Assembly: GCA_043808545.1 (NCBI GenBank)
Contig: JAZDEU010000002.1
Coordinates: 1 to 32,972 of the forward strand
Direction of reading: 5' to 3'
Length of the DNA stretch: 32,972 bases
Source: a bacterium
Lineage (GTDB): Bacteria > Patescibacteriota > Patescibacteriia > JAZDEU01
Within the stretch, counting starts at the first letter, position 1, and each line of letters begins with the position of its first letter. The notes beneath the pieces are model-generated. The model made no database searches. It was given only the letters and a program-made list of their open reading frames with translations, and was not told where the DNA came from. Positions 7,505 to 29,026 of the stretch are shown here, piece by piece. The translations under genes were made by a program, and so were the position numbers.

Positions 7505-9091
7505 ATGAAAAATCCCAAACTCAAACCCCTAAAAGTCCTATTCGTATCCGTAGAAGCTGCTCCATTTGCTAAAGTCGGCGGACTTGCCGATGTCGCAGGC
7601 GCGCTTCCGCAAGCTCTAAAAAATTTAGGAGTTGATATTAGCGTAATAATGCCGCTTCACAAATGCGCTAAAAAAATATTAGCTGAAAAAAAATATAATG
7701 TAAAAAAAATTATTCATAATTTTTCTGTTGAATATAATGGGGGAAAAGAAAAAATAAATGTTTATCAAGCAATGTTAAAACTTGCTAATAAAGGCTTAAC
7801 ACCCCCCTTACCCCCCTCAAGAGCCTGCCCTGAGCGACAGCCGAATGGGGGGGAACTAAAGGACAGTGTCTTAGTTTATTTTATTGATCATAAGATGTTT
7901 ACATCCGCGGAAGAAGTCTATGAAAATGAAAATAAATTTTTATTTTTTTCAAAAGCTGTAGTAGAGCTTATCGCGACTCACACCCCCCTTGCCCCCCTCA
8001 AGTGTGGAATTTATAATCCAGATATTATTCACTGCAATGATAATCATATCGCGCTAATACCAGTGCTAATAAAAATTAAAAAGCTCCCCATAAAAACAGT
8101 TTTTACAATACATAATCTGATGTATCAAGGAAAAATATCCACTGAAGATTTAAAACTTTTAAACATCTCTAAAGAAAGCGCAAGCTCGCTCAAAAAAGAT
8201 TCTGAAAACGGCGATATAAATAAAATGGCACAAGGGATTCTTTTATCAGACATAATAAATACTGTGAGTCCAACTTACGCAAAAGAAATTTTGACAAAGG
8301 AATACGGCGAAGGACTGGACAATATTTTAAAGATGCGAAAGAAGGATTTATATGGTATAATAAATGGCATAGACACTGAAAATCTTAATCCAGAAAATGA
8401 TCCTTTAATACCTTATGATTATTCTATAAAAAATTTGGAAGGCAAAAAGAGATGCAAAGAGGAGTTATTAAGAAAATACTGGGTTACCCCTCTTTTTAAA
8501 GGAGGGGAATGTACCGATTTACCACCGCTCATCGGACTTGTTTCTCGGATAGACTCGCAAAAAGGAATAGACTTAGTAATTGAAGCTATGCCGGAATTAT
8601 TTAAAAACCATCCAGATACGCGTTTTATTTTATTAGGAACGGGACTCCCAGAATACGAAAATCAATTAAAGACGCTGGCTTCAAAATATCCTGATAATTT
8701 TAAAGCACTAATTAAATTTGATATAAAAATAGCGCAAAAAATTTATGCGGGTTCTGATATATTTTTAATGCCTTCCAGATTTGAACCTTGCGGTCTTGGG
8801 CAGTTAACTGCTATGCGATATGGGACTGTTCCGATTGTAAGGAAAACAGGCGGACTTGCGGACACGGTTATAAAACTCAAATCTCAAATCTCAAATCTCA
8901 AAACTGCGGATGGATTTATGTTTGATGAATATTCAAACATTGCGATGCTAGAAGCTATTGATATAGCATTAAATGTTTATCAGGATAAAAAAATATGGAA
9001 ACAGCTAGTGATAAACGGGATGCGCAGAGATTCATCGTGGGACGCGTCAGCTAAAAAATATTTGGAATTATACAAAAAAATGTCTGCGTAA
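7505..9091 (+). CDS. glgA: Glycogen synthase (GT5) carrying in-frame repeat-derived inserts
   Basis: KVGGLADV, TIHNLMYQG, TVSPTYAKE, PSRFEPCGL and GGLADTV motifs. At 528 aa it is longer than typical GlgA because of the inserts. Confidence 0.96.
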   Translation: MKNPKLKPLKVLFVSVEAAPFAKVGGLADVAGALPQALKNLGVDISVIMPLHKCAKKILAEKKYNVKKIIHNFSVEYNGGKEKINVYQAMLKLANKGLTPPLPPSRACPERQPNGGELKDSVLVYFIDHKMFTSAEEVYENENKFLFFSKAVVELIATHTPLAPLKCGIYNPDIIHCNDNHIALIPVLIKIKKLPIKTVFTIHNLMYQGKISTEDLKLLNISKESASSLKKDSENGDINKMAQGILLSDIINTVSPTYAKEILTKEYGEGLDNILKMRKKDLYGIINGIDTENLNPENDPLIPYDYSIKNLEGKKRCKEELLRKYWVTPLFKGGECTDLPPLIGLVSRIDSQKGIDLVIEAMPELFKNHPDTRFILLGTGLPEYENQLKTLASKYPDNFKALIKFDIKIAQKIYAGSDIFLMPSRFEPCGLGQLTAMRYGTVPIVRKTGGLADTVIKLKSQISNLKTADGFMFDEYSNIAMLEAIDIALNVYQDKKIWKQLVINGMRRDSSWDASAKKYLELYKKMSA

Positions 9092-9157
9092 AATCCGCGT
9101 CACTATCCGCGTAAATCCGCGAGAATAAAATAAATATTTACTAATCTATTCAAAAAT

Positions 9158-10084
9158 ATGAGCATATTAAAACCAGAGATACGAAAAGACTACATCCAAG
9201 AAAAATATGTTATTATCGCGCCTTTAAGAAAAAAGCGCCCGCGCCAGATTGAAAAACCGCAAATATCCGAGGTCCAAGACCAAACATGCGTTTTTTGCCC
9301 GGAGCAAGTTGATAAAGTAAAAGATTTATTAACAATCGGTCCGCGAAAAAATTGGCGCATAAAAATTATTAGAAATATATTCCCTGCTGTTTCTTTAGAT
9401 AATCCTAATGCTTATGGAACGCAAGAAGTCGTTATAGAAACTCCTGAACATGTAAGAGAGTTAGATGACTTGCCTGAAAAACATATTATGGAGCTCTTAG
9501 AAGTTTACGCTTTGCGCACTAAAGAAATATCAAAAAATAAAAAAATCCAATATATCCTGATTTTTAAAAATAACGGCGGACGGGCGGGAGCTTCAATAAT
9601 CCATTCTCATTCGCAAATTTTCGCCACATCCTTCATCCCTCCGAATTTAATTGATAAAAGCCAAAGAGTCCAAGCTTATAAATTAAGCAATGGGAAATGC
9701 GTTTACTGCGATGTTATTGAAAAAGAATCAAAAAGTCCGAGAATAATTTATAAAGATAAAAATGTAATAGCATTTACTCCTTACGCGTCTATTCATAATT
9801 ACGAAGCATGGATAATGCCGCTCAAGCATATTGATAATATAACATGCCTTAATAAAAATGAAAAAGAATCTTTCGCTAAAATTTTAAAAATGATTCTTAA
9901 AAAAATAAACGCGCTAGGACTACCCTATAATTATTATTTCCATCAGGTTATTAATGATGAAGATCAGCATTTATATATGAAGATAACACCGCGCGGAAGC
10001 GTTTGGGCCGGCGTGGAAATCGGCTCCGGGTTAGTTATAAATCCAGTTTCTCCCGAAGACGCGGCAGAGTATTATAGGAAATAA
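9158..10084 (+). CDS. galT: Galactose-1-phosphate uridylyltransferase-family protein
   Basis: CVFCP, N.FP, GASIIHSHSQ (HxHxQ) and CVYCD motifs. Confidence 0.88.
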   Translation: MSILKPEIRKDYIQEKYVIIAPLRKKRPRQIEKPQISEVQDQTCVFCPEQVDKVKDLLTIGPRKNWRIKIIRNIFPAVSLDNPNAYGTQEVVIETPEHVRELDDLPEKHIMELLEVYALRTKEISKNKKIQYILIFKNNGGRAGASIIHSHSQIFATSFIPPNLIDKSQRVQAYKLSNGKCVYCDVIEKESKSPRIIYKDKNVIAFTPYASIHNYEAWIMPLKHIDNITCLNKNEKESFAKILKMILKKINALGLPYNYYFHQVINDEDQHLYMKITPRGSVWAGVEIGSGLVINPVSPEDAAEYYRK

Positions 10085-10139
10085 TGAATTATGAATCATG
10101 AATTATGGTTTATTGTCTAGATATTTTGTTATAAATTTT

Positions 10140-10167
10140 GTAGGGGCACGATGCTTAGTGCCCCTAC
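10140..10167. repeat. GTAG-family 28-bp REP
   Basis: gtaggggcacgatgcttagtgcccctac. Confidence 0.82.
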
Positions 10168-10182
10168 TTTACGAACTAATAT

Positions 10183-11070
10183 ATGTTCACACTCGGCATT
10201 GACACCGGCGCTACTTCAATAAAAAGCGGCGTTGTTGACGAAAAAGGAAAAATAAAAAATTTTATAAAAATAAAAAACCAATTTGCCAATGGGGAAAATT
10301 TTTTAATTAAACAATTAGCAGGAATAATAAATGATTACAAAAAAATCTTTCCTATAAAAAAAGCTGGAATCGGATTCGCTGGATCAGTAAATTTCAAAAG
10401 AGGGATTATTATTGGAACTGCTAATATGAACGGAATAAAAAATTTATATATAAAAAGAGATTTAGAAAAAAAATGCGACATAGAAATAACAGTTGATAAT
10501 GACGCGCATTGTTTCGCTCTCGCGGAAACTCATTTCGGAGCAGGTAAAAATTATAAAGACATACTTTGCATAACTTTAGGCACAGGTATAGGCGGAGGAA
10601 TAATAATAGATAAAAAACTCTGCCGCGGAGCTGATAATACAGCTGGGAAAATAGGACATATTATAATTGATAAAAATTCTGATATAAAATGCGGATGCGG
10701 AGGCTTCGGACATTGGGAGAGCTTTACAAGCGGCAAAGCTTTAGCTAAGCTATATAAAGTAGCGACTGAACAAGAAGTGGATGCGGAGATAATCGCTGAA
10801 ATGGCGGGCAGAGGCGAGAAAATAGCGCAAAAAGTTATTATTGAGGCTGGCTATAATTTCGCGATAGGCATAGCGAATCTTCTAAATATTCTTAATCCTG
10901 AAATTGTAATTATCGGAGGAAGCCTTATAAAAATAGATTTGCTTTGGAACACATTTTTAAATAACCTTCCATCATTTCTAGAAGGAAAGGCCGTAGCAAA
11001 TACTAAAATAGTAAAATCAAAATTCGGAGATGAAGCGGGAGTAATTGGGGCGAGCTTATTATTTAAATAA
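10183..11070 (+). CDS. ROK-family sugar kinase (glucokinase-like)
   Basis: GIDTGAT, DNDAHCFALAE, LGTGIGGG, CGCGGFGHWE and IIGG motifs. Confidence 0.93.
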   Translation: MFTLGIDTGATSIKSGVVDEKGKIKNFIKIKNQFANGENFLIKQLAGIINDYKKIFPIKKAGIGFAGSVNFKRGIIIGTANMNGIKNLYIKRDLEKKCDIEITVDNDAHCFALAETHFGAGKNYKDILCITLGTGIGGGIIIDKKLCRGADNTAGKIGHIIIDKNSDIKCGCGGFGHWESFTSGKALAKLYKVATEQEVDAEIIAEMAGRGEKIAQKVIIEAGYNFAIGIANLLNILNPEIVIIGGSLIKIDLLWNTFLNNLPSFLEGKAVANTKIVKSKFGDEAGVIGASLLFK

Positions 11071-11119
11071 TGCTTTTCATTATTTTTGACTTTTGATTTT
11101 TAACTTTTGATTTTATTTT

Positions 11120-14044
11120 ATGCCCATACCACAGCTTACATATAAAGATCATAAAAGGCTTAATAATTCATCCTCTTCCCGCCGAAATCTTTATGATTCA
11201 CGCAGGAACCATACACTTCAAAGGGGGAAATATAATAAAAAAAATAAAAGAAGCTTTAAATTAAAAGTTTTTTTATTTCTTCTTAAAGCCGCTCTATTTC
11301 TTTTCGCCGCCGGCGCTATTGCTTTTGCATTTTTACTATGGAGATATTCAAAAGATTTACCTGCCGCGGACAAACTCATTGAAAGAGACATAGCTTTAAG
11401 CACGAAAATTTATGATCGCGCGGGCGAGACAATTCTTTATGATGTTCACGGAGAACAAAAAAGAACAATGGTAAGTCTTGATGAGATTCCGCAATACGCA
11501 AAAAACGCGACTATAACTGCGGAGGACCGAGATTTTTATACCCATCACGGCTTTGATTTAAAAGGAATAATACGAGCCATATTAACAAATCTATTAAGGG
11601 GAACATTGCATGGTCCGGGCGGCTCTACTATAACACAACAATTGGTAAAGAATGCTGTGCTAAGCTCTGAAAAAACATACTCGCGGAAATTAAAAGAACT
11701 TGTCTTATCTTACAGAATAGAAAATAAATTCTCAAAAGACGAGATTTTAAAAATGTATCTTAATGAAATACCATATGGTTCTACTGTTTATGGGATTGAA
11801 GCGGCGGCGCAAACTTTTTTCAATAAAAAAGCGTCTAAATTAACTCTGGCAGAATCTGCCATCCTCGCATCTTTGCCTAAAGCTCCAACTTACTATTCGC
11901 CTTATGGAAACAATAAAGATAAACTAATCGGCCGCCATCAGTATGTCTTAGATTCTATGGTTGAACAAGGATACATAACAAAAGAAGCCGCGGAAGAAGC
12001 GAAGAAAGAAACATTGAATTTTAATCCATTAACAGAAAATATTATTGCGCCCCATTTTGTTATGTATGTTAAAGAAATGCTGGCGGAAAAATACGGAGAA
12101 GATTTTATGGAACAAAGCGGTCTTAAAGTAATAACGACTCTTGATTTAGATAAGCAAAAAAAAGCAGAAGAAGCGATTAAAACCGGCGTTGAAAAAGCAA
12201 AAGAATTTAATGCAGGAAACGGCGCGCTAGTTGCTATTGATCCGAAAACTGGACAAATTCTCGCAATGGTCGGATCTCGCGATTATTTTGACACAGAAAA
12301 TGAAGGGAATTTTAATGTGGCGCTTGCGAAAAGACAGCCTGGCTCATCATTTAAGCCTATAGTTTACACCGCATTATTAGAAAAGGGATATACTACCGAA
12401 ACAATTCTTTTTGATGTAGCGACAAATTTTAAACCTAAAAATGATACTGCGGGAAAAGCTTATATCCCGCTTGACTATGACGAAAAAGAACGCGGTCCGA
12501 TAACAATAAGAAAAGCTCTGCAAGGATCTCTTAATATTCCCGCAGTCAAAGCGCTATATCTCGCGGGCTTAGATAATGTTTTAGATTTAGCAAAAAAACT
12601 AGGTTATACCACTTTACAAGACAAGAACAGATACGGACTTTCTCTTGTTTTAGGAGGAGGAGAAGTAACACTTTTGGAACATACTGCCGCTTATGGAATT
12701 TTAGCAAGAGAAGGAATTTTTAACCCTGCGGTCGCGATACTAAAAATAGAAGATAAAGACGGCAATGTAATAGAGGAATTTAAAGAAAACGGGACGAGAG
12801 TAATAGATGAGGAAATCGTGAGAAAAATGAATGACATTTTGTCTGACGACTCCGCGCGAAGTTATATTTTTGGATCTAACAGCAAACTAACTTTAAAGGG
12901 TCGCCCTGTGTGCGCGAAAACAGGAACGACAAACGATTATAGAGATGCGTGGACGATGGGATATACGCCATCTCTTGTTGCTGGAGTATGGGTTGGAAAT
13001 AATGATAATTCAGAAATGAAAAAGGGCGAAGGAGGAACGAGAGCCGCCGCGCCTATTTGGAATGAATTTATGACAAAAGTTTTAGGAGATGGAAATAAAG
13101 GAGATTCAACTCCGGTGGAAGAATTTAAAAAACCGAAAGAAGATTTTGTTGACAAAGTAATGCTTAACGGACAATCCAACAATGAAACACTCATAAAAAT
13201 AGATAAAGTATCTGGTAAAATCGCCACTGATTTTTGCCCTGAGTCTTATGTGGAAGAAAAAAAGTATGGTTCGGTGCATTCAATTTTATATTATGTTTCC
13301 AAAGATAAACCGAGAGGAGACATTCCAGAGAATCCCAGCGTTGATCCGCAATTCGCTGGCTGGGAGACTGCGGTTTTAAAATGGGCGACCAGCACAAAAG
13401 AATTGACTTTAGAAAATCCGCCAACGGAAAAATGCTTTTTGCATAATTTAGAAAATAAACCTGTCTTAAATATTGTTTATCCGTCTGACAAAGATACTGT
13501 GCAATCTAAAAATATAGAAATACGGGTTGACGCGACCGCGCCAAAAGGAATACATCATATTGATTATTATATAGATGATACGCTCGCGCAAACTGTCGCC
13601 ACTTATCCTTTTAATTTAAGTTATCCTGCTGTAAAAATAGCTAACGGATTTCATACGATAAAAGCAAAAGCTTATGATGATGTTGAAAATTTTAATGAAG
13701 CTTCCATTGAAATAAATTTGATGATTGGACGGGATCCGATTAGCGCGTATTTTGAAGCGCCCCAGCAAAATGCGTCTTTCTCATCATCTTCTTTCCCTAT
13801 AAAATTCGTAATAAAAATTTCCGATCCCCTAAACTCGCAAAGCATAAAAATTTTATCGCAAAAAGATGGCGAAACAAGTCAGATAATAAAAACTTTTTCT
13901 GATAATGAAATATTATCTGACACGCTTGAGTTTACTTGGGGAGATAATCCTGTTGCTGGAAATTATAAATTTTACATTGAAGCGATTGATAAAAAAAATA
14001 GATATACAAGAAGCGAGGAGCTTGAGATGAAAATTTTGAGATAA
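11120..14044 (+). CDS. Class A penicillin-binding protein (PBP1A) with C-terminal Ig-like domains
   Basis: TM helix; transglycosylase motifs EDRDFYTHHG, GGSTITQQLVKN and RKLKE; transpeptidase motifs SSFK, SLN and KTGT. Confidence 0.95.
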   Translation: MPIPQLTYKDHKRLNNSSSSRRNLYDSRRNHTLQRGKYNKKNKRSFKLKVFLFLLKAALFLFAAGAIAFAFLLWRYSKDLPAADKLIERDIALSTKIYDRAGETILYDVHGEQKRTMVSLDEIPQYAKNATITAEDRDFYTHHGFDLKGIIRAILTNLLRGTLHGPGGSTITQQLVKNAVLSSEKTYSRKLKELVLSYRIENKFSKDEILKMYLNEIPYGSTVYGIEAAAQTFFNKKASKLTLAESAILASLPKAPTYYSPYGNNKDKLIGRHQYVLDSMVEQGYITKEAAEEAKKETLNFNPLTENIIAPHFVMYVKEMLAEKYGEDFMEQSGLKVITTLDLDKQKKAEEAIKTGVEKAKEFNAGNGALVAIDPKTGQILAMVGSRDYFDTENEGNFNVALAKRQPGSSFKPIVYTALLEKGYTTETILFDVATNFKPKNDTAGKAYIPLDYDEKERGPITIRKALQGSLNIPAVKALYLAGLDNVLDLAKKLGYTTLQDKNRYGLSLVLGGGEVTLLEHTAAYGILAREGIFNPAVAILKIEDKDGNVIEEFKENGTRVIDEEIVRKMNDILSDDSARSYIFGSNSKLTLKGRPVCAKTGTTNDYRDAWTMGYTPSLVAGVWVGNNDNSEMKKGEGGTRAAAPIWNEFMTKVLGDGNKGDSTPVEEFKKPKEDFVDKVMLNGQSNNETLIKIDKVSGKIATDFCPESYVEEKKYGSVHSILYYVSKDKPRGDIPENPSVDPQFAGWETAVLKWATSTKELTLENPPTEKCFLHNLENKPVLNIVYPSDKDTVQSKNIEIRVDATAPKGIHHIDYYIDDTLAQTVATYPFNLSYPAVKIANGFHTIKAKAYDDVENFNEASIEINLMIGRDPISAYFEAPQQNASFSSSSFPIKFVIKISDPLNSQSIKILSQKDGETSQIIKTFSDNEILSDTLEFTWGDNPVAGNYKFYIEAIDKKNRYTRSEELEMKILR

Positions 14045-14049
14045 AAAAT

Positions 14050-14733: not shown

Positions 14734-14739
14734 AATATT

Positions 14740-15030: not shown

Positions 15031-15060
15031 GAATTAAATTTTCATGTTCTGTTTCAACAA

Positions 15061-15104
15061 AAAAAATAAGGCTTCGCAGTTTTGTAAAAACAACTGCGAA
15101 GCCT
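15061..15104 (-). terminator. Intrinsic terminator of the repeat-protein gene
   Basis: 13-bp stem AGGCTTCGCAGTT/AACTGCGAAGCCT followed on the minus strand by TATTTTTTTT. Confidence 0.75.
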
Positions 15105-15120
15105 GTATTGGCAGTAATCG

Positions 15121-15576
15121 TCAAGAAAAGAATAATTCCAAAATATTTTTCTCTTTGGCGCTATCAACGACCGCTTTCAGGGAAAGCTCGCGGCTAAGGT
15201 TGCGGACATCGCTATCACCGAAAGTTTGGCAGTTAATAAGATATTCCAGCTGTTTCGCCAATTCTTCCTCTGCTACTTTCAGGGAAAGCTCGCGGCTAAG
15301 GTTGCGGACATTGCTATCATCGGATTTTTGGCAGTTAATAAGATATTTCAGCTGTTTCGCCAATTCTTCCTCTGACATTCTGCGCATTACTTTCAGGGAA
15401 AGCTCGCGGCTAAGGTTGCGGACATTGCTATCATAGGATTTTTGGCAGTTAATAAGATATTCCAGCTGTTTCGCCAATTCTTTCGCCACTACTTCTGAAT
15501 TATTAACTGTCCTCATAACTTCCAAATGACTAATACTTCCTTTTTGTATCTCTTCAAAAATCATTTCTATAGACAT
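15121..15576 (-). CDS. Small hypothetical protein with three near-identical helical (HEAT-like) repeats
   Basis: 3x ELAKQL(E/K)YLINCQ...DS(N/D)VRNLSRELSLK. It has an upstream GAGGGG SD-like motif and a downstream terminator. Confidence 0.7.
   Translation of the reverse strand: MSIEMIFEEIQKGSISHLEVMRTVNNSEVVAKELAKQLEYLINCQKSYDSNVRNLSRELSLKVMRRMSEEELAKQLKYLINCQKSDDSNVRNLSRELSLKVAEEELAKQLEYLINCQTFGDSDVRNLSRELSLKAVVDSAKEKNILELFFS
15174..15482. repeat. Coding tandem repeat, three units
   Basis: Units start at 15174, 15276 and 15390 (periods 102 and 114 bp, both multiples of 3). Confidence 0.9.
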
Positions 15577-15606: not shown

Positions 15607-17421
15607 ATGCAAACTACAGAACAAAAAGATCAATATAATAAACTATCATATCTAAAAAAAATTGTCAAATATTTATTCTTTCTTTTTATATTTCTTTTGC
15701 CCATCCAAACCCGCTATATCTATCAACAAGCCACGCTAAATAATGGCGCGTGGGAATACGGGACTTTAAGCTTATACGCGACGGAAATCTTGTTAGGGAC
15801 AATAATTATTTTGTATATAATTGGATTTATAGGGGCGTATTCTAGGGCATATCGCAATATGCCCCTACAATTATACACTGAAAACGGGAAAAAAAATCTA
15901 AAAAATCCGCTTATTTTTTTACCGCTCGCATTACTGCTTTGGTCTGTAGCATCTATCTTTTGGGCTTATGACAAAATGCTCGCTTGGGATAGATGCATAA
16001 TTTTAATGGAAGGGATTATAGTGTATTTGTTCATTATTAAAATCCCCCTCTTTTCCAAAGAACCTGCCCTGAGCGATAGCCGAATGGGGGGGTTAGGGCC
16101 TGCCTGCCTGTCTGCGCAGGCAGGCGCAGGCAGGGAGATTTCTCCAAGCGCAAAACCTACTCAAATAGAAAACGCCTCCAGATATAACAACCCAGAAAAA
16201 TCCCCCTGTATCCCCCTTTACAAAAGGGGGAGCTATCTAATCCCCCTAATCGCCAGCGCAATCTGCCAATCAATGCTCGCTATTTACCAGTTCGCTTCCC
16301 AGCAAATAATTGCGAATAAATGGCTTGGCATAGCATCCCACTTGCCAGAAACACTCGGGACATCTGTTGTTGAAACGCCGCTTCGCCGATGGTTGCGCGC
16401 TTACGGAAGCCTGCCGCATCCTAATATTCTAGCGGCATATTTAGGAATTGCTCTCCTTCTCTTTATTATATTTATCTTCAATAAATCTCCAAAAAAAAAT
16501 CAGCAATCCGAACTTACAAATACCGAAGAATTAAAACAACGATTATCAGGGATACTAAAAGTATTCGCTATTTTCTTAATAAGCGCAGCTATTATTTTTA
16601 CATTTTCCCGCGCCGTATGGATAGGATTATTTCTCTCTATAATAATATTTTTAGTCTTTAATAAACTACCGCGTCATCCTGATAAAAATAAAACACGGCG
16701 TCATCCTTCCCCCGCTTTAGCGGGGGAAGGATATCTCAAAATGACACAAAATTTTCCCTTTATCCCATCTTTCGGTTTTTTTATTTTATTCCTCTTCGTT
16801 TTATTCCTCGCGCGCGAACCTATAATGGCGAGAATTTCAAATTCAAACAGATTAGAACAAAAATCAAACCAAGAACGTATGTTATCCTATAAAGAAAGCA
16901 AGGATATTATAAAAGAAAACTGGTTGATTGGAACTGGAATTGGAAATTACACTCTTGCTTTATACAAAAAAAATCCAAGTCTTTCCGCTTACGAATACCA
17001 GCCTGTTCATAATTTATTTATACTAATATTCGCCGAACTAGGAATCTTCGGCTTATTGATTTTTTTATTATTCCTTTTTTATATTACTAAAAAAATTATA
17101 CAAAATCACTTAGTGTCTGTTGAAATATTCGCAGAGTGTCATTCCGACCGAGCGAACCAGCCACCCAAACGGCTGGTTCGTAAGTGGAGGAATCTGTTTA
17201 TTAAACCAAATTTGGTGCGGTCAACAGATCCCCATTCGGCTATCGCTCAGGGCAGGCTCTCGGCTACACTCGGGATGACAAAGGAATACTATTTCAACAG
17301 CAACTACTTCATCATCTTATTTATATTCATACTTCTAATCTCTCTTTTTGACCATTATTTCTGGAGCCTGTATTTCGGAGTAATACTCTTCTGGATTTGT
17401 ATGGGAATTATAATCTCTTAA
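15607..17421 (+). CDS. O-antigen ligase (Wzy_C)-family membrane protein with multiple repeat-derived inserts
   Basis: Multiple TM helices; RAYGSLPHPNILAAYL, TFSRAVW, GTGIGNY, PVHNLFILIFAELG and LFDHYFW motifs. Confidence 0.88.
   Translation: MQTTEQKDQYNKLSYLKKIVKYLFFLFIFLLPIQTRYIYQQATLNNGAWEYGTLSLYATEILLGTIIILYIIGFIGAYSRAYRNMPLQLYTENGKKNLKNPLIFLPLALLLWSVASIFWAYDKMLAWDRCIILMEGIIVYLFIIKIPLFSKEPALSDSRMGGLGPACLSAQAGAGREISPSAKPTQIENASRYNNPEKSPCIPLYKRGSYLIPLIASAICQSMLAIYQFASQQIIANKWLGIASHLPETLGTSVVETPLRRWLRAYGSLPHPNILAAYLGIALLLFIIFIFNKSPKKNQQSELTNTEELKQRLSGILKVFAIFLISAAIIFTFSRAVWIGLFLSIIIFLVFNKLPRHPDKNKTRRHPSPALAGEGYLKMTQNFPFIPSFGFFILFLFVLFLAREPIMARISNSNRLEQKSNQERMLSYKESKDIIKENWLIGTGIGNYTLALYKKNPSLSAYEYQPVHNLFILIFAELGIFGLLIFLLFLFYITKKIIQNHLVSVEIFAECHSDRANQPPKRLVRKWRNLFIKPNLVRSTDPHSAIAQGRLSATLGMTKEYYFNSNYFIILFIFILLISLFDHYFWSLYFGVILFWICMGIIIS
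17111..17306. mobile_element. Composite MITE-like element inside the ligase CDS
   Basis: Terminal inverted repeats TAGT..CTGTTGAAATA / TATTTCAACAG..ACTA enclose a TGTCAT...ATGACA doublet (17137-17280). Same architecture as 29104-29267. Confidence 0.7.
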
Positions 17422-17445: not shown

Positions 17446-17563
17446 TTGTCATTCCGACCGAAGCGAAGCCCGAAGGATGAGGGCAAGCGAAGCGGAGGAA
17501 TCTCTTTTAATCCCCATAATTTGGATTATTTAAAAGATTCCTCCACTTCGGTCGGAATGACAA
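17446..17563. repeat. TGTCAT-family inverted doublet between convergent genes
   Basis: ttgtcattccgaccgaag...ggaggaatct / agattcctcc...cttcggtcggaatgacaa. Confidence 0.85.
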
Positions 17564-17587
17564 AAAATAATTTTTACGAAAAATTCA

Positions 17588-18820: not shown

Positions 18821-18898
18821 CGAGGGGGGGGGGGGGACAGGGTGGTGTTAAGCCTTAGTTTTGCGCGCCAATTCCTCGTTTAACACCCCCCTTGCCCC
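18821..18898. repeat. Degenerate inverted doublet of the C-rich family containing a G13 run
   Basis: gaggg...ggtggtgttaagcctt (its reverse complement matches aaggcttaacaccccc at ~7791 in glgA) and ttaacaccccccttgcccc. Confidence 0.65.
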
Positions 18899-18950
18899 AT
18901 TCATTTAATGTCAAATTATTTGTTATTTTTTTAAAATTTAAAATCTAAAA

Positions 18951-19931
18951 TCATCCCCCCCGATGGTATTTAATAAATGTCTCCCTTAAATGTTTGTCCG
19001 TAATATGCGTATAAATCTGCGTCGTGGTAATAGAAGAATGTCCTAGCATTGTTTGAACTGACCGAATATCCGCGTCATTAGCGAGTAAATCTGTCGCAAA
19101 CGAATGGCGCAAAGTATGAGGAGAAATCTGTTTCGTTATTCCCGCAACTTTCGCGTATTTTTTTACTATTCTTTGAATAGTCCGCGGAGTTAAAGACTCT
19201 AAACTTTCATCTCTTTTATCTTTCGCCCGATCATGGCTTGAAAATAAAAACGGAGAAACATCCCGCCGAACATCTAAATATTTTTTAATCCAGTACTTAG
19301 ACTGATTAGATAAAAAAACTATCCTAACCTTGCGTCCTTTTCCCCGAACCGTCAACTCCTGAGCTTTGCTTTGGTCTGCCTGCGAAGGCAGGTCTTTTAA
19401 ATCTATTTGCTCTATTTTTAAATTTACCAGTTCTGAAACACGAAGCCCTGTTGAAAATAATGTTTCTAAAATCGCCTTATCGCGAAGCGCGATTAAATTA
19501 TTCCCCTCTTGAGATGGGTTAGGGGTATGTAGCGGAGCATTCAAAAATCGTTCTAACTCGGCGCCTTCTATAAAAGTTATATCTCGCTCCGACATCTTTC
19601 CTAATTCAATTTTTTCCGATGCCAAAGTTTTTACATCAATTTTCGCCAAATATTTTAAAAACGCGCGCAAAGAAATAAGATGGTAATTCTGCGTGCTTTT
19701 TTTCAAAGATTCCCCTTTTTCATTTTCCAGCCTGTTGAGCCACAACCGATATTGCGTAACATCTTCCAGCTTGATTTCAGACGAATCATCTATATTATGC
19801 TCCCCAGCCCAGGCAGCAAATCTTTTTAAATAAAATTCATAATTTTTAACAGTCGCCAAACTGCGATTTTTTTCAATCTCAAGATAGGTCAAAAATTTAG
19901 TTATGTATTTTTGTAGATTTTGATTCGCCAT
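18951..19931 (-). CDS. XerC/XerD-family tyrosine recombinase
   Basis: N-terminal SAM-like domain; RDKAILETLFSTGLRVSEL, GKGRKVR, HTLRHSFAT, LGHSS and TTQIYTH catalytic motifs are intact. Confidence 0.95.
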   Translation of the reverse strand: MANQNLQKYITKFLTYLEIEKNRSLATVKNYEFYLKRFAAWAGEHNIDDSSEIKLEDVTQYRLWLNRLENEKGESLKKSTQNYHLISLRAFLKYLAKIDVKTLASEKIELGKMSERDITFIEGAELERFLNAPLHTPNPSQEGNNLIALRDKAILETLFSTGLRVSELVNLKIEQIDLKDLPSQADQSKAQELTVRGKGRKVRIVFLSNQSKYWIKKYLDVRRDVSPFLFSSHDRAKDKRDESLESLTPRTIQRIVKKYAKVAGITKQISPHTLRHSFATDLLANDADIRSVQTMLGHSSITTTQIYTHITDKHLRETFIKYHRGG

Positions 19932-20956: not shown

Positions 20957-21015
20957 ATGCAATGCAATAAGCAAAATTATTCCAAAATTTCAACATAAAA
21001 AAATCTGAAAAACTG

Positions 21016-22461: not shown

Positions 22462-22478
22462 CTAAAATGCCATGCATA

Positions 22479-22657
22479 TGGACATCACATTATGAAATCG
22501 CACTCCATAAACTGCAAAAATTGCGACTAGCTTGTTTTTCGTTTAGAAAAATCCTCTATGTATCTACTGATACTTATGCGGTTTTTCTAAACTGCAAAAC
22601 TTCGCTATTCATCAATTTTTTCTAGTTTCTAAGCGCGCTTTCATAATGTGATGTCCA
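22479..22657. mobile_element. 179-bp palindromic element (RPE/MITE-like), copy 2, inverted
   Basis: Ends TGGACATCACATTATGAAA / TTTCATAATGTGATGTCCA, flanked by TA on both sides. Its reverse complement aligns end to end with 4730-4908. Confidence 0.85.
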
Positions 22658-22694
22658 TAGCTACCCGCCATTGGCGGGCAGCTATGGATAAAAA

Positions 22695-24050: not shown

Positions 24051-24137
24051 ATTTGCTTTTTTAAGCGAATGTTGAAATAATAATTTATAATTCAACAAAC
24101 AACTATTTATTAAATATTTAAAATTCGCGATATTAAC

Positions 24138-24929
24138 CTATCGACCTAAAGTTAATATCTTAGAAGATATTTCAACAACTTTTTTATGAATTGCCATTCC
24201 ATTGCTTGCTAAAAAAAATCTGTTTCTCTCATCCGCTTCTTTGTTGCCAAAAAAATCAGTCACAATCCCGCCAGCTTCTTTTACAATCAATTTTCCCGCG
24301 GCATAATCATAAATTTCATTTCCGTTATTTATAAAACATTCTATCTTTCCTTCAGCCAAGCGGCATAAATCAAGCGCGGGGGACATATTTATCAAAAATC
24401 TTTTTATATTTTTCTTCTCTAAATTTTTTATCAAATCTCTCAACCTTTTTTCAAAATAATGCCCGTAATCGCAATCATAAGCTAAATTAATATTGCTAAT
24501 ATTTTTTTGTGAATTCACTTTTATCCTTTTGTTATTTAAATATGCGCCTTTCCCTCTTCTCGCGCAATATATCTGATTTAATATAGGGTTGTTCACCACG
24601 CCCGCTATAATTTTTTTTTCTTCCAATAAAGCGATGCTCGCGCAAAAATTAGGCATCCCCATCACAAAATTGCTTGTCCCGTCCAAAGGATCAATCACGA
24701 AAGTAAATTTTGACTTATGATCAATAAATCCAACTTCTTCTGAAAGAATGTTATAATCAGGAAAATTTTTTGATAAATCTTTTATAATTTTCTTTTCTGA
24801 TTCCAAGTCAGCTCTTGTGCGGAAATCAAGCGCTATGCTCTTTTTATATAATTTAAAACATTGTCCGAAATATTTCCGCAAAACTTCAGCGCCTTTATTG
24901 CTTGCTTCTATTATTTTTTCCAAAACCAT
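24138..24929 (-). CDS. suhB: Inositol monophosphatase family protein
   Basis: T.AD..SE, ILSEE, IDPLDGTSNF and YDYAAG motifs. Start placed at ATG 24929. Confidence 0.88.
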   Translation of the reverse strand: MVLEKIIEASNKGAEVLRKYFGQCFKLYKKSIALDFRTRADLESEKKIIKDLSKNFPDYNILSEEVGFIDHKSKFTFVIDPLDGTSNFVMGMPNFCASIALLEEKKIIAGVVNNPILNQIYCARRGKGAYLNNKRIKVNSQKNISNINLAYDCDYGHYFEKRLRDLIKNLEKKNIKRFLINMSPALDLCRLAEGKIECFINNGNEIYDYAAGKLIVKEAGGIVTDFFGNKEADERNRFFLASNGMAIHKKVVEISSKILTLGR

Positions 24930-25030
24930 AGTTATTTGACTTTTAATACTAATTATTAATTTTATTATACCACAAAACAAAAAAATATTAAAATATAAAA
25001 AGACCTCAAATTATGATGCCTTTTAAAATT

Positions 25031-26473
25031 TTATTTTTTTATAACAGCAGATTCCCCATTGCTATCTTTCAAATAAAATCCCATCTCCTCAATTCCTTTT
25101 CTTAATTCATCCGCCTTTTTCCAGTTTTTCTTCTTTCGCGCTTCCTCCCTTTCTTTAATTATTTTGTTCACTTCCTCAGGAATTTCCGCCTTTTTTTCTT
25201 TTTTAGCATTTTCCAACCCTAACCCGAACACTTTATCAAAATCAAAAATCAAATTTAATTTTTTCATATTCTCCAGATTATCCGCTTTCACAACTTCCCA
25301 TAAAACCGCTAACGCCTGCGGAATATTCACGTCATATTCTATCGCCGCAATAAATTTATTTCTATATTTTTCCCCATCTTTACTCTTTTTCCCTTCTATC
25401 CCTTCTTGCCCGCCTATCCCTTCCTTTAATTCTATAACCTTCCCCCTTAACTTATTTAAACTAACTTCCGCAGATTTTAGCGCCTCCCAAGTAAAATTCT
25501 GCTTTGAACGATAATGCGAGTTTAAGAAAAAATATCTTAACGCCAAAGGATCATACCCCTTTTCTTTTATCTCAGCGAGAGACCACGCCGCGCCTTCGGA
25601 CTTTGACATCTTGCCATCATTCACATTCAAATGTTCATTATGCAACCAATAATTTACAAACTTTTTCCCATTCGCAGATTCGCTCTGCGCGATCTCGTTC
25701 GTATGATGAACAGGAATATGTTCTACTCCGCCCATATGCAAATCCAGTGTATCTCCTAAATATTTTTTTGCCATAGCAGAACATTCTATATGCCATCCCG
25801 GAAAACCATCGCCATTTTTTACAAGATCAGATTTAAATGGACTCTTCCAAAACTGTAAAGCATTTTTATGCGTACCCGCCTTAAAAAACCATAACGCAAA
25901 ATCCGCGGGATGCTTTTTATTTTTATCTTCCACATCCGCTTTTCCAGCCGATGATATATTGTTTTCTAAAATTTGTCCTGATAACTTTGTATAATCGCGC
26001 GCTTTTGACACATCAAAATAAATTGCTAAATCCGTCGCGTAAGCATAACCTTTTTCCAGCAATGTTTTTACCATCCCTATCATTTCCTGAATATGCTCAG
26101 TCGCCCGCGGCTTTATATCCGCGTCTTGCGCATTAAGATCGCGCAAATCATCCTCAAAAACTTTAATATATTTTTCCGCAATCTCCTGTGGCGTTTTATT
26201 TTCTCTTCTCGCGCCTTTTTCCAGCTTATCCTCGCCAGTATCTTCATCAGAAGTTAAGTGTCCGACATCAGTATAATTTCTAACGAAATTTACTTCATAT
26301 CCAAGATAATTCAGCGACCGCCTGATTAAATCAGCTAAAACCATAGCCCGCATATTTCCAATATGCTGCGCCCAATAAACCGTCGGCCCGCAATGGTAAA
26401 ATTTTATTTTTCCATTCTCAATCGCCTTAAACTCTTCCTTTTTCTTAGTTAATGTATTATATATTTTTAGCAT
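25031..26473 (-). CDS. cysS: Cysteine--tRNA ligase
   Basis: CGPTVY, HIGN, PGWHIECSAM, H.NEIAQSE and KMSKS motifs. Confidence 0.98.
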   Translation of the reverse strand: MLKIYNTLTKKKEEFKAIENGKIKFYHCGPTVYWAQHIGNMRAMVLADLIRRSLNYLGYEVNFVRNYTDVGHLTSDEDTGEDKLEKGARRENKTPQEIAEKYIKVFEDDLRDLNAQDADIKPRATEHIQEMIGMVKTLLEKGYAYATDLAIYFDVSKARDYTKLSGQILENNISSAGKADVEDKNKKHPADFALWFFKAGTHKNALQFWKSPFKSDLVKNGDGFPGWHIECSAMAKKYLGDTLDLHMGGVEHIPVHHTNEIAQSESANGKKFVNYWLHNEHLNVNDGKMSKSEGAAWSLAEIKEKGYDPLALRYFFLNSHYRSKQNFTWEALKSAEVSLNKLRGKVIELKEGIGGQEGIEGKKSKDGEKYRNKFIAAIEYDVNIPQALAVLWEVVKADNLENMKKLNLIFDFDKVFGLGLENAKKEKKAEIPEEVNKIIKEREEARKKKNWKKADELRKGIEEMGFYLKDSNGESAVIKK

Positions 26474-26551
26474 AATTTTATCTTTTTATTTCCCATTTTT
26501 TAAAGGGAGGCTAATGGTTTTAAAATACTTAAATCTATCTGAATATAAATA

Positions 26552-26580
26552 ATTATATCATACATTCTGACTAATTTCCA
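26552..26580 (-). promoter_or_regulatory. Putative cysS promoter
   Basis: TGGAAA-N17-TATAAT with an extended TG. Confidence 0.55.
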
Positions 26581-26643
26581 GTGAACTTTTGGCGCTCTCC
26601 CTTGCCCTCTCCCAAAGCGCATTATATAACAATAACAAAGGCT

Positions 26644-26686
26644 AAAAAAAATAAAAACCGCATCAGCTTGTGTTAAACTGATGCGG
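26644..26686 (-). terminator. Intrinsic terminator on the minus strand
   Basis: CCGCAUCAGUUU-aacac-AAGCUGAUGCGG followed by UUUUUAUUUUUUUU. Confidence 0.8.
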
Positions 26687-26692
26687 ACAATG

Positions 26693-26998
26693 AACCATAA
26701 AAAAAATTTACCACTTTATAATTCCCCCTGCATATAGGGAATTTTTCGCAGGCGGCCAGTCATCCCACTGGCGCTGAAACATTATAAATGACGAAAAGCC
26801 ATTTTAAAATTGGTAAAAAAATTTTAAGTTATGCCCATGCAGAACCTTCCCATACAGGCATCTTTAGAGGATCATCTTTCCGTCCCGTCAGAGTCTCCGG
26901 CATGCCTTTGCTTCCTGTCTGCGCCAGCCTGCGCTGGCAGGCAGGGACCCTGACGCTTCAGCGAGATAAAATGTCGCGCCTTGCAAGGTTTTATGGTT
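26693..26998 (-). ncRNA. Candidate large structured RNA (~306 nt), unassigned
   Basis: A 10-bp terminal helix encloses at least seven helices, several of which pair through G-U only on the minus strand. A terminator follows immediately. Confidence 0.6.
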
Positions 26999-27027
26999 TA
27001 GGATAAGATAAGATAAGATAATCTGTC

Positions 27028-27112
27028 GTAGGGGTACGATGCTTGTCGTAGGGACACGATGCTTCGCGCCCCTACTTTATAAAATTTCGTAGGGGTGCGA
27101 TGCTTCGCGCTC
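27028..27112. repeat. Cluster of three GTAG-family REP copies
   Basis: Copies start at 27028 (partial), 27048 (full, to 27075) and 27089 (partial), all with GTAGGG...CGATGCTT. Confidence 0.82.
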
Positions 27113-27133
27113 ATCCTTTATAGACGATGTTCT

Positions 27134-29026
27134 ATGGATCAAGTAGAAGAAATAAAACAAAAACTTGATATCGCGGATGTAATTTCAGGTTATATTAAAC
27201 TCACTCCGGCGGGAATATCTATGTTTAAGGCGAATTGCCCGTTTCATAGCGAAAAAACGCCTTCTTTTATGGTGTCCCGCGAAAAGCAAATTTTTAAATG
27301 TTTCGGATGTGGAAAAGGAGGGGATATCTTTTCTTTTGTTATGGAAATGGAAGGGGTTGATTTTAAAGAAGCGCTTGAAATTTTAGCTCAAAAAGCGGGC
27401 GTACAGCTTAAAAAACAAAGTCCAAAAATAGCAGGCGAGAAAAATAAAGTATTGGATTGTCTAGAGATGGCGTCAAAATTTTATTATCAGGTTCTCTTGA
27501 ACGCCAGCTTGGCAGAAGACGCGAGAGCCTATCTTAAAAAAAGAAAAATAAACGAAGATACGATTGATAATTTTAAAATAGGATACGCGCCAGATTCATG
27601 GGATTCTTTATACAATGCGTTAAGAAAAAAAGAATTTTACGCGAATGACATTGAAAAAGCGGGTCTCATAATAAAAAAACAAAACGCGAATGATTATTAT
27701 GATCGTTTCAGAAACAGGATTATGTTTCCGATAAAAGATGTGAACGGAAGAGTAATAGGATTTTCGGGAAGAATACTGGAACAACACCCCCCTGCCCCCC
27801 CTCAAGGGGGGAACTCGCGTTCCAATGACGGTGCGGGTACTCCGGCTAAATACATAAATACTCCGCAGACAATAATGTTTGATAAAAGCAGAGCGCTTTA
27901 CGCGATAGATAAAGCGAGAGATGAGATAAGAAAAAATAATTTAGCAGTTATCGTAGAAGGGCAAATGGATGTTATCGCGTCGCATCAGGCTGGCATAAAA
28001 AATGTTATCGCGTCTTCTGGGACGGCGCTAACCTTAGAACATTTAAAAATTATAAAAAGATATACTTCTAATATCGCTCTTTCGTTTGATGGAGATGAAG
28101 CTGGAAAAAATGCGGCTAGACGAGCCGTAGAAATCGCGCTCCCTTTTGACATGGATATTAAAATAATAAAAATATTAGGGGTGAAAGATCCAGATGAGTG
28201 CATAAGAGAAAATCCAGAGAAATGGAAACAAGCTATTTTAGACGCGCAAAAATTTATGGATTATTATTTTGATGAAACGATTGTGAGCGCTAACTTAGAA
28301 AATATTGGAGAGAAAAAAACAGCGGCGAAAAAAATGCTGGAACTTATATCAAAAATTTTTGATAAAGTAGAACAAACGCATTATTTGCAAAAACTATCAG
28401 CATATCTGAATGTGCCTGAAAATATTTTGAGAGAAGTCCTGTCTAATAAAAAAAATGTTATAAAAACAGAAGAATCAAAAAAAATTATTAAAAAAAATTA
28501 TTTCGGAGAAAAGGATATAAACGCAAAAATAGCGGAAAGAATCATATCGTTTGCAATAATATACGCGGAGAATTTACCTTATGTCGTTGCTCATCTTTTG
28601 CCTGAATTTATAACTTCGGAAAAATTAAATAACCTTTACAAACAGATTATTATATATTATACTGAAAATCAAGGAAATGAATCTTTTTTAAGCGAAAAAA
28701 ATGCTTTAAAATTTTTTAAAAATTTTGCTTTGAAAGAAGAGGCAAGAGAAGAAAAAGAATATTTTGACGAGCTTTGGATATACGGAGAAAAAGAAATTAT
28801 TGACTTTAAAGAAAGCGAAGAAATTTTAACTCCTCAAAGAATAAAATTAGAGCTGGAAAAAGGAATTTCAGAGCTTAAAGAAAGTTATAATAAAAGAAAA
28901 CTTAATTCTTTGCAAAGAGAACTTCAAAAAGCGGAAGAAGAAAATAACAAAGAAAAAATAGAATTATTTTCAAAAGAATTTAATAAAATCATGGGAGAAA
29001 TGAGCAGAAATCTTGATGATAATTAA
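27134..29026 (+). CDS. dnaG: DNA primase
   Basis: CPFHSEKTPSF...CFGC zinc finger, DRFRNRIMFPI, KYINTP, and VEGQMD/FDGDEAG TOPRIM motifs. Start placed at ATG 27134 (MDQVEEIK). Confidence 0.98.
   Translation: MDQVEEIKQKLDIADVISGYIKLTPAGISMFKANCPFHSEKTPSFMVSREKQIFKCFGCGKGGDIFSFVMEMEGVDFKEALEILAQKAGVQLKKQSPKIAGEKNKVLDCLEMASKFYYQVLLNASLAEDARAYLKKRKINEDTIDNFKIGYAPDSWDSLYNALRKKEFYANDIEKAGLIIKKQNANDYYDRFRNRIMFPIKDVNGRVIGFSGRILEQHPPAPPQGGNSRSNDGAGTPAKYINTPQTIMFDKSRALYAIDKARDEIRKNNLAVIVEGQMDVIASHQAGIKNVIASSGTALTLEHLKIIKRYTSNIALSFDGDEAGKNAARRAVEIALPFDMDIKIIKILGVKDPDECIRENPEKWKQAILDAQKFMDYYFDETIVSANLENIGEKKTAAKKMLELISKIFDKVEQTHYLQKLSAYLNVPENILREVLSNKKNVIKTEESKKIIKKNYFGEKDINAKIAERIISFAIIYAENLPYVVAHLLPEFITSEKLNNLYKQIIIYYTENQGNESFLSEKNALKFFKNFALKEEAREEKEYFDELWIYGEKEIIDFKESEEILTPQRIKLELEKGISELKESYNKRKLNSLQRELQKAEEENNKEKIELFSKEFNKIMGEMSRNLDDN

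Follow-up and report, generated by a model that had tools for sequence, protein, structure and literature searches.

Short repeat families between and within genes of a groundwater patescibacterium

The same short repeats lie between genes and, in frame, inside several unrelated proteins of a groundwater Patescibacteria (CPR) genome, which raises the question of how they came to occupy coding regions and how the host proteins accommodate them. The genome is small and AT-rich (34% GC) and is represented by a bin of 71 contigs that is 82% complete; the window analyzed here is a stretch of 32,972 nucleotides. An earlier note on this window proposed that small palindromic elements had been inserted in frame into glgA, a Xer recombinase, dnaG and a ligase. 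Every coordinate and peptide listed in that note was located by repeat search and translation, and each site falls in a stretch missing from orthologs of the same class but other families. The explanation we favor, with a probability of about 85%, is that the repeat families spread at the DNA level and that in-gene copies are kept by a filter on frame, stop codons and loop position, giving rise to lineage-specific loops in proteins that are otherwise intact.

Repeat families and their distribution in the genome

Altogether, 635 repeat regions were found across the genome. Regions internal to ORFs number 132 and are distributed over 76 of 739 ORFs, or about one gene in ten; the ORF set consists of crude calls (at least 90 aa, greedy by length), so the 76 may include upstream repeats taken in through wrong starts. 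Among ORFs of at least 200 aa, 55 of 450 (~12%) carry repeats. Replication, translation and cell-wall genes are represented, including those for DnaG, GyrB, IleRS, PheT, TsaD, MurB and RecJ, and Pfam domains were present in all 20 additional repeat-host ORFs that were sampled. The median repeat region measures 34 nt inside ORFs versus 58.5 nt in intergenic DNA. Shuffling 429 kb of the genome with a first-order Markov model left no repeat regions, compared with 233 in the real sequence; G035, a relative from another family, has 12 regions in 400 kb, an approximately 20-fold lower load. This census agrees with the observation, made in the window, that the repeats occur both intergenically and within open frames.

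The C-rich unit (F1; window family D6) has four copies in the window, at 7787, 7968, 18871 and 27772. It had been described as read in all three frames, and the translations TPPLPPS, HTPLAPLK and HPPAPPQ bear this out. Genome-wide, nhmmer returned 55 F1 matches, with 37 in ORFs (30 sense and 7 antisense, in differing frames), 16 in intergenic regions and two at an ORF edge; F1 subtypes have 10 of 11 and 7 of 7 copies in ORFs. Intergenic examples include a long-loop subtype upstream of glgA (7453-7491, plus strand) and a G13 tract with an inverted F1-like C-rich arm (18824-18903), detected by repeat search. Two direct copies of F2, a 31-nt unit, span 7820-7850 and 16059-16089, and a third, at 17230-17260, is inverted; they are 97% alike (I11/I12), and 8 of 11 copies genome-wide lie within ORFs. 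The CTGCCTGCGCAGGCAG unit constitutes window family D7.

F3, CCTGCCTGCGCAGGCAGG, is an 18-nt palindromic unit; its flanks beyond ±1 show complementarity near chance (0.17-0.39). Its 42 sites are split evenly between ORFs (21) and intergenic DNA (21), with all three frames in use (11, 7 and 4), and the family-by-family census places 22 of 39 F3 copies in ORFs. The 16-nt palindrome, allowing at most one mismatch, has 42 sites in this genome versus 0-7 in each of 40 relatives: three genomes of the same family have 7, 1 and 0, and 37 others have 0-2 each. The reversed control of this pattern gave no matches in any genome. A perfect 18-nt palindrome of this family lies between dnaG and rpoD (29135-29159). 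REP-like palindromes of the GTAG/CTAC type (D3/D5) are mostly intergenic (8 of 11 copies), as at 7226-7253 (hairpin z -4.49); repeat search located more copies at 10143-10164 and 27048-27122.

Two longer families are MITE-like. The first is a 186-nt element with 45-nt terminal inverted arms (I1, I4, I5), present at 4727-4912 and again at 22475-22662; none of its 18 genome copies lies in an ORF. The second, a 201-nt family, has one of 13 copies in an ORF, the exception being the ligase copy. MITE-like units of the GTCATTCCGACC... type also lie between genes, downstream of the ligase (17446-17567). Families open in all or most frames reside in genes, whereas the 186-nt and 201-nt families are almost entirely intergenic, and in-gene copies without exception keep the frame and lack stops. 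By placing short stop-free families in genes and long stop-containing ones outside, the census is in line with the frame-preserving selection suggested earlier.

In the repeat alignment, unit boundaries are sharp and identical across unrelated contexts, and units nest in one another's loops. The repeats are DNA-level units used in multiple frames and both orientations, not peptide-level ones. Their description as palindromic applies to many in-gene copies, but glgA sites 1 and 2 and Xer site 1 fold no better than shuffles (hairpin z +0.21, -0.88 and -1.09, respectively).

Inserts in four host proteins

Orthologs of GlgA (21), DnaG (24), Xer (19) and the ligase (15), drawn from 41 genomes searched, were aligned. 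All listed inserts lie in gaps of other-family orthologs, and distant orthologs with the same peptides were not found. As the earlier note had stated for the catalytic motifs, the hosts are intact and not decaying: 308 of 316 strongly conserved columns are kept (79/82 in GlgA, 85/88 in DnaG, 105/106 in Xer and 39/40 in the ligase), and the frames are open across conserved domains on either side of the inserts. Furthermore, all five proteins with cluster mates have equal-length counterparts with 1-8 differences in one or two other assemblies, which speaks against a one-off assembly error.

The glycogen/starch synthase gene glgA (7505-9091, plus strand; Pfam Glyco_transf_5 and Glycos_transf_1) carries three repeat-derived inserts. 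Insert 1 (7797-7857, plus strand; residues ~98-117) is a C-rich F1 unit whose loop and G-tract are separated by a nested F2 unit of ~27-31 nt (7820-7850). It is missing in 17 of 21 orthologs, and sister genera have another sequence or nothing at that position. Insert 2, HTPLAPLKCGI (7979-8010, plus strand), is an F1 copy with a decayed G-tract arm, and insert 3, TPLFKGGE (8487-8507, plus strand), is a short CCCCTC...GAGGGG hairpin (z -1.79); the glgA of G003 holds a full F1 copy in the loop occupied here by insert 3. The AlphaFold2 model of GlgA has a mean pLDDT of 90.1, with values below 50 solely at residues 95-116 (insert 1) and 160-167 (insert 2), while residues 331-340 of insert 3 reach 67.

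The primase gene dnaG (27095-29026, plus strand; Pfam zinc ribbon, DNAG_N and Toprim) contains an F1 copy, HPPAPPQGGN (27783-27815, plus strand), between the GRIL and KYIN motifs. The form on record comprises 630 aa from the ATG at 27134; a start at the GTG at 27095 passes through the upstream repeat. The insert corresponds to a gap of 17-18 residues in the solved primases 2au3 and 5guj and is modeled as coil with pLDDT 47-58, flanked by strands 207-214 and 240-242. The AlphaFold2 models thus put the GlgA and DnaG inserts in low-confidence coil loops between well-modeled elements, as the surface-loop prediction required. Related sequence at the DnaG site in G002 and G003 makes this insert common to three genera, so at least some inserts are old and do not by themselves prove present mobility.

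The cleanest insertion case is LPSQAD in the xerC/D-type tyrosine recombinase (18951-19931, minus strand; Pfam Phage_integrase). This F3 palindrome (19375-19392; hairpin z -2.61) is an exact 18-nt, six-codon excess over the DNA of sister genera G002 and G003, is lacking in two 93%-identical proteins (P0002 and P0003), and shows no target duplication. It is the only insertion with a known near-identical empty site; relatives at 90% identity or more were looked for in the case of GlgA and TsaD and none was found. The second Xer insert, HTPNPSQEGN (19500-19531, minus strand), is an F1 copy in a region that varies among the closest relatives.

The ligase is a Wzy_C O-antigen-ligase-like membrane protein (15607-17421, plus strand; Pfam Wzy_C). 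Five sites had been attributed to it and at least five are present: a GTAG...CTAC-ended REP-like palindrome (15830-15868, plus strand, its repeat site spanning 15845-15868; hairpin z -3.81), an F2 unit (16059-16092, plus strand; I12 repeat), a compound copy of the F3 palindrome (16100-16137; hairpin z -2.88), a CGTC-preceded perfect hairpin with a 13-bp stem and a 4-nt loop (16693-16731, plus strand; z -6.25), and a 201-nt composite MITE-like element (17109-17309, plus strand; residues ~501-568; depth 43) that is read through in frame. Genome-specific runs occupy residues 157-213, 363-380 and 524-563. The CGTC-preceded hairpin, at residues 363-380, is a gap in orthologs and is single-copy under the blastn criteria used. 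The 201-nt element is a gap in all 15 orthologs, and 17 of its 26 other genome copies have stops in the corresponding frame.

Spread, selection and alternative explanations

According to the favored explanation, several unrelated short families, mainly GC-rich and hairpin-forming, would multiply as DNA in this genome and its family and would insert anywhere. Copies in genes would survive only where their length keeps the frame, the frame is free of stops, and a surface loop or other tolerant segment takes up the 6-70 added residues; conserved proteins would thereby gain lineage-specific loops and stay otherwise intact. The loop positions probably reflect purifying selection rather than targeting. 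Spread may proceed by copy-and-insert of single-stranded hairpins, driven either by template switching during replication or by an HUH/Y1-type enzyme that acts in trans.

Neither a RAYT nor another dedicated mobilizing enzyme was found in the 82%-complete genome. The sole PF01797 match is an IS200/IS605 TnpA equivalog, interrupted by an in-frame TAG, on a 2.8-kb contig and with its own end hairpins. Like the few DDE transposases, this broken gene is not flanked by the repeats. The earlier note saw no mobilizing enzyme in the window; no plausible one is indeed present there, but the window does encode recombinases, namely Xer and a large serine recombinase (30930-32441).

A bolder reading, which we regard as rather doubtful, sees in the tag-less micro-palindromes of CPR bacteria a separate class of mobile DNA that dwells in genes and is a main source of the lineage-specific insertions in essential CPR proteins. 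Unit lengths would be multiples of three (18 nt for F3, 27 nt for the nested glgA unit) and stop-free in most or all frames, movement would require no RAYT and leave no target duplication, and permissive loops of DnaG, GyrB, TsaD and aminoacyl-tRNA synthetases would be re-seeded repeatedly.

An unlikely alternative to transposition as elements is that the copies arise and spread through ectopic gene conversion or templated repair: at breaks or stalled forks in hairpin-prone DNA, short patches would be taken from copies elsewhere in the genome, with no element-specific enzyme. Such copying would fit the Xer insertion without target-site duplication, the failure to find a RAYT or other repeat-associated transposase in the genome, and the nesting of units. 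It would also fit the repeated occupation of four TsaD loops across CPR lineages and the recurrence of different sequences at the same junctions, seen in GlgA loops of four genera and after DLKD of Xer, where P0009 has a different insertion. However, HUH-type transposition (IS200/IS605) makes no target duplication either, the unit boundaries remain constant in unrelated contexts with flanks at chance, and the rise of F3 to 42 sites is confined to one genus and resembles the burst of a discrete element.

Loss of the inserts before the mature protein, through intron-like RNA removal, intein-like removal or ribosome bypass, is highly improbable. Many units form stable hairpins, but direct support for such removal is nil. 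In-gene copies are in frame and stop-free even though most other 201-nt copies have stops in frame, and long stop-containing families are kept out of genes; neither constraint would exist if the inserts were removed before translation. Moreover, units of 18-33 nt are too short for splicing machinery, Rfam matches in the window were limited to four tRNAs with no intron family, and the Pfam search gave no intein domains. An intein or self-splicing intron was rejected on the same searches and on the insert size of 6-67 residues. The inserts are probably translated. Least probable of all is an artefact, in which a metagenome bin was mis-assembled at repeats, which break assemblies and often lie at contig ends of this 71-contig, 82%-complete bin, or the hosts are pseudogenes: the flanking domains, conserved columns and equal-length proteins described above argue against it, as do inserts in the same loops of sister genera.

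Relation to known small repeats

The phenomenon itself is known from Rickettsia palindromic elements (RPEs) and intragenic REPs, which the available texts of PMC3733652 and PMC10969869 describe in several phyla; the lineage, the families and the high density are new. Our literature search found no report of intragenic palindromic repeats in CPR, and CPR is not named among the phyla with REPs in the available text of PMC3733652. Protein-coding palindromes were first presented as a peculiarity of Rickettsia and later appeared sporadically as intragenic REPs; here they affect ~12% of larger ORFs. If general, they would offer a concrete DNA-level origin for many unexplained CPR protein insertions, call for caution in CPR annotation, alignment-based phylogeny and structure prediction, and provide natural 'loop-insertion scans' marking permissive sites of essential enzymes. 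The 18-nt unit with its clean empty site renders the movement of tiny palindromes testable.

RPEs, as far as summarized in PMC10969869 (after Ogata et al. 2000, 2002), are palindromic repeats of ~150 bp with 44 insertions, found intergenically and in frame in functional genes, where their peptides were judged fold-compatible. Several families of them populate a genome that is small and AT-rich, in a bacterium dependent on its host, and that summary knows of no dedicated transposase. The repeats described here are alike in lying both between genes and in frame within functional ones, in their fold-compatible sites, in forming several families in such a genome, and in that no dedicated transposase was found. 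They differ in phylum, in size (in-gene units mostly span 18-40 nt, with a median of 34 nt) and in number (132 internal regions in 76 ORFs). The likeness, drawn from descriptions of RPEs, is one of mode of action rather than of membership in the RPE-1 to RPE-10 families, and the host belongs to Patescibacteria, not Rickettsiales.

GTAG- and CGTC-tagged REPs are, in the available text of Di Nocera et al. 2013 (PMC3733652), palindromes of 20-40 bp, some of them intragenic and many in replication and repair genes; the CGTC repeats lack a dedicated transposase and have an 8-9-bp stem, a 4-5-nt loop and CGTC at one end. Stem-loops with a GTAG end occur here at 7226-7253, 10143-10164, 27048-27122 and 15830-15868. 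However, F1, F2 and F3 lack the GTAG tag, no flanked RAYT was found in the 82%-complete genome, and F1 and F3, the most gene-resident families, carry neither GTAG nor CGTC. Compared with the CGTC form of PMC3733652, the ligase hairpin at 16693-16731 has the CGTC and a 4-nt loop but a 13-bp stem, and is a single copy.

The 186-nt and 201-nt families resemble MITEs in their long terminal inverted arms and 13-18 copies. Neither a parent IS nor target duplications were identified for them, and the DDE transposases present are unlinked to these repeats. Elhai et al. reportedly described in 2008 very small dispersed repeats of cyanobacteria, ~21-27 nt long, nested and also located in conserved genes. 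They would share the nesting and the conserved-gene location with the repeats described here and differ in phylum and sequence.

In-frame repeats in four conserved genes

The earlier note's observation of small repeats lying in frame within four genes was confirmed, and its interpretation of them as inserted palindromic elements is supported. Every peptide it named is encoded where it was placed, the underlying DNA is repeated both in the window and across the Patescibacteriota genome that includes it as contig C2 (G000; 878,563 bp, 71 contigs, GC 34%, completeness 82%), and host genes use all three reading frames of the C-rich unit, as it stated. The closest named relatives of the window's proteins are Patescibacteria (CPR) records, namely Uhrbacteria, Falkowbacteria, Kerfeldbacteria and Komeilibacteria. 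Pfam assigns the hosts as glgA (7505-9091, + strand), a Wzy_C O-antigen-ligase-like membrane protein, here called the ligase (15607-17421, +), a Xer-type tyrosine recombinase (18951-19931, -) and dnaG (27095-29026 as the longest ORF, +).

Judged by their sequences, all four are genuine genes. They are under constraint: where orthologs show conservation of at least 90%, G000 has the conserved residue in nearly every column (79/82 in GlgA, 85/88 in DnaG, 105/106 in Xer and 39/40 in the ligase). The start of dnaG in the record is the ATG at 27134, and the resulting 630-aa form is present in the protein collection while the 643-aa form is absent; the longest ORF starts at a GTG (27095) and reads through a GTAG-type repeat (27095-27133), so that ORF callers can absorb upstream repeats in this genome. 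Proteins of the same length as GlgA, DnaG, the ligase, TsaD and RecJ, with 1-8 substitutions, are encoded on contigs of other assemblies, and the inserts are therefore not confined to one assembly.

We searched 41 genomes (G000, its family members G001-G003, and 37 that belong to the same class but not to this family) and aligned 21 GlgA, 24 DnaG, 19 Xer and 15 ligase orthologs. Stretches were taken as G000-specific when gapped in at least 80% of alignment rows. Gaps matching the repeats were found in all four proteins: at residues 95-120, 160-168 and 330-336 of GlgA, 237-247 of DnaG, 181-190 of Xer, and 157-213, 363-380 and 524-563 of the ligase. The cleanest is that at the Xer peptide LPSQAD, which is the strongest single insertion case. 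At this point the G000 DNA exceeds that of G002 and G003 by exactly 18 bases, corresponding to the palindrome of family F3, and no target duplication is visible at the insertion. Two proteins 93% identical to the window Xer, compared at the protein level since the relatives found on contigs are all at most 62% identical, read DLKD-QSKAQ with LPSQAD absent. Ligase residues ~499-570 have 26 other genomic matches, 17 of which contain stops in the same frame, so this segment is a non-coding element that the open frame reads through. An AT-rich repeat in glgA (8868-8905; VIKLKSQISNLKT) was rejected as a fourth insert, the loop of the orthologs being similarly long there.

Predicted structures agree with the proposed location in loops. 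In the GlgA model (mean pLDDT 90.1, pTM 0.89), values below 50 occur only at residues 95-116 and 160-167, both modeled as coil; the former lies between strands 80-92 and 121-128, and the latter between helix 143-157 and strand 174-178. The third GlgA site also falls in modeled coil (pLDDT 67). The DnaG insert is predicted as coil between strands 207-214 and 240-242 (block pLDDT 47-58, model mean 84.3, numbering from M14), and the solved primases 2au3 and 5guj have a gap of 17-18 residues at this position.

Repeat families and their genomic distribution

Three short families were distinguished. F1 is a C-rich unit of ~33 nt (best window copy 27783-27815), F2 a unit of ~27-31 nt (16059-16089), and F3 a perfect 18-nt palindrome, CCTGCCTGCGCAGGCAGG (29140-29157). 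The window also contains palindromes ending in GTAG...CTAC (7226-7253 and 15830-15868), a hairpin preceded by CGTC (16693-16731) and MITE-like elements 186 nt and 201 nt long. The F1 ends are sharp, with alignments diverging immediately beyond them, and its 7-bp stem is paired in 216/235 cells, as against 152-162 of ~235 with a shifted partner. At one stem position 19 copies have a T-A pair and 8 have C-G, which may reflect two subfamilies. The F3 unit is 18 nt; position ±1 is C/G in 35/41 copies, and complementarity of the flanks beyond it is at about chance level. Nesting was noted as well, with F2 inside the F1 copy at the first GlgA site, and F3 or another palindrome inside three intergenic or ORF-edge F1 copies. 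The palindromic nature put forward for the repeats holds for part of them only: several copies fold strongly (z -2.2 to -6.3 against shuffles), but others fold no better than shuffles.

Two 186-nt copies, at 4727-4912 and 22475-22662, have 45-nt inverted arms, with mutual complementarity of 86%; the copy at 4727-4912 directly adjoins tRNA-Arg and tRNA-His. In the holA-xer spacer, a run of G13 (18824-18836) faces an F1-like, C-rich arm at a distance of 40 nt.

Self-BLAST of G000 (depth at least 3) yielded 635 repeat regions totaling 49,101 bp, of which 398 are intergenic, 139 lie wholly inside ORFs and 98 at ORF edges; since ORFs were called crudely, the counts are approximate, upper figures. 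This approach was preferred to K-mer single-linkage clustering, which placed 1024 of 1119 intervals in one cluster, and to a scan for GC islands, which was too unspecific (3034 islands). Chance does not explain the repeats, as a Markov shuffle of 429 kb gave 0 regions compared to 233 in the real sequence, and a reversed F3 pattern had 0 matches in 41/41 genomes. When the count is restricted to ORFs of at least 90 aa, and to regions that stay 30 nt or more away from the ends of the ORF, 132 regions occur in 76 of 739 ORFs. Of the GC-rich regions (GC at least 0.45), 88 are internal, 20 lie at an edge and 141 are intergenic; they are found in 55 of 450 ORFs of at least 200 aa. All 20 further host ORFs sampled have confident Pfam domains; they include GyrB, IleRS, PheRS-beta, TsaD, MnmA, RecJ, MurB, RsmH, a UvrD/PD-(D/E)XK helicase-nuclease, two Mur ligases and a class-V aminotransferase.

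The family content of genes fits the proposed selection for frame preservation. By blastn criteria, copies in ORFs amount to 22/39 for F3 (six of six seed frames open), 10/11, 7/7 and 3/10 for the dnaG, Xer and long-loop types of F1 (5/6, 3/6 and 3/6 frames open), 8/11 for F2 (4/6) and 7/45 for the 34-nt GTCATCCCGAGC family (4/6). For the longer 201-nt and 186-nt elements they are 1/13 and 0/18, with 1/6 and 0/6 open frames. Because ORFs make up 80% of G000, even short units occur in genes somewhat less often than this share would give, and the long, stop-containing ones far less often, as such a filter predicts. The median region length is 34 nt for internal vs 58.5 nt for intergenic regions.

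A rigid IUPAC pattern for F1 had no match in G000 but 13 in G001, which has its own C-rich variant, and an nhmmer profile was used instead. Of its 55 matches, 37 fall in ORFs, 30 of them in sense and 7 in antisense orientation; a further 16 are intergenic, and the last 2 lie at ORF edges. F3 has 42 sites in G000, divided equally between ORFs and intergenic DNA (21 each; frames 0/1/2 were 11, 7 and 4), with 7 in G003, 1 in G002 and none in G001; the 37 other-family genomes have 0-2 apiece.

AT-rich repeats appear to form a second class of in-frame repeats: 44 such regions lie inside ORFs, encoding peptides like KLEIRNWKL-, FQILNFKF- and SKFKVQSSKL-. Short tandem AT-rich motifs of the ATTTTTGACTTTTG type also recur upstream of genes, for example at 892-966, 11058-11118 and 8868-8905.

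Re-used loops and insert age

The DnaG insert is old: in both G002 and G003, related sequence of the C-rich or hairpin kind is present at this site. Other sites differ in content between relatives. At the first GlgA site G001 has a different MITE-like sequence and G003 nothing; at the second, G003 has a long composite element; at the third, G003 has a full F1 copy vs a shorter hairpin in G000. Another Xer, P0009, has an 18-residue insert at the exact LPSQAD junction. Four G000 insert sites in TsaD coincide with variable-length insert sites in Falkowbacteria- and Uhrbacteria-named proteins, and CPR TsaDs of 338-342 aa have none of the four.

The phenomenon may extend beyond the family of G000, though the other-family genome G035 (GC 50.5%) is repeat-poor, with 12 repeat regions in 400 kb. 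Repeat-like peptides were also seen at the same variable ligase and Xer loops in four loci of other families (L061 and L077 in G024, L065 and L083 in G031).

Known systems and candidate mobilising enzymes

In-frame palindromic repeats are an already known kind of feature, and the small dispersed repeats of cyanobacteria are a further comparison system besides those that follow. A 2024 MITE review (PMC10969869) singles out Rickettsia RPEs, which are ~150 bp long and of whose 44 insertions almost half lie in ORFs, and suggests that RPE-like cases may exist elsewhere. Di Nocera et al. (PMC3733652) report CGTC repeats without a dedicated transposase. In contrast to the tagged REPs treated there, the two commonest in-gene units of G000 carry neither a GTAG nor a CGTC tag. 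Literature searches for a CPR report of in-gene repeats, which left aside the supplementary intragenic-REP list of Di Nocera et al., returned nothing relevant. New are the CPR lineage and the repeat families, a unit of only 18 nt for which a clean empty site was demonstrated, the insert density, and the finding that different genera repeatedly use the same loops.

No mobilising enzyme could be assigned to the repeats in G000, which is 82% complete. The search proposed in the note, for RAYT/Y1, GIY-YIG or DUF559 genes flanked by the repeats, gave no such link: DUF559 and TnpB were not found in G000, and the in-gene families do not specifically flank any of its TnpA, DDE or GIY-YIG genes. The single PF01797 match is an IS200/IS605 equivalog (NF033573) that is interrupted by one in-frame TAG and has hairpins of its own at the ends. 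This TnpA (C67:316-759, L087) shares a 2.8-kb contig with a broken DDE transposase. Three DDE_Tnp_1 genes (one broken) exceed the Pfam cut-off, and a fourth match is weak. One small GIY-YIG ORF (C43:22819-23109) lies between MITE copies; this was rejected as evidence of a link because repeats are present in roughly half of all spacers between genes.

Between an NYN-domain gene and the ligase, a tandem array (15174-15482) contains 2.9 copies of a 114-nt unit with 89% matches; it is overlapped by one ORF on each strand (+, 15044-15436; -, 15121-15576), both without a convincing Pfam match. Next to tRNA-Asn lies a large serine recombinase (30930-32441, -; domains Resolvase, Recombinase and Zn_ribbon_recom) that is regarded as unrelated to the repeats. 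It ends inside or against the tRNA gene (30897-30969, +), and the pair resembles the boundary of an integrated element running off the window.
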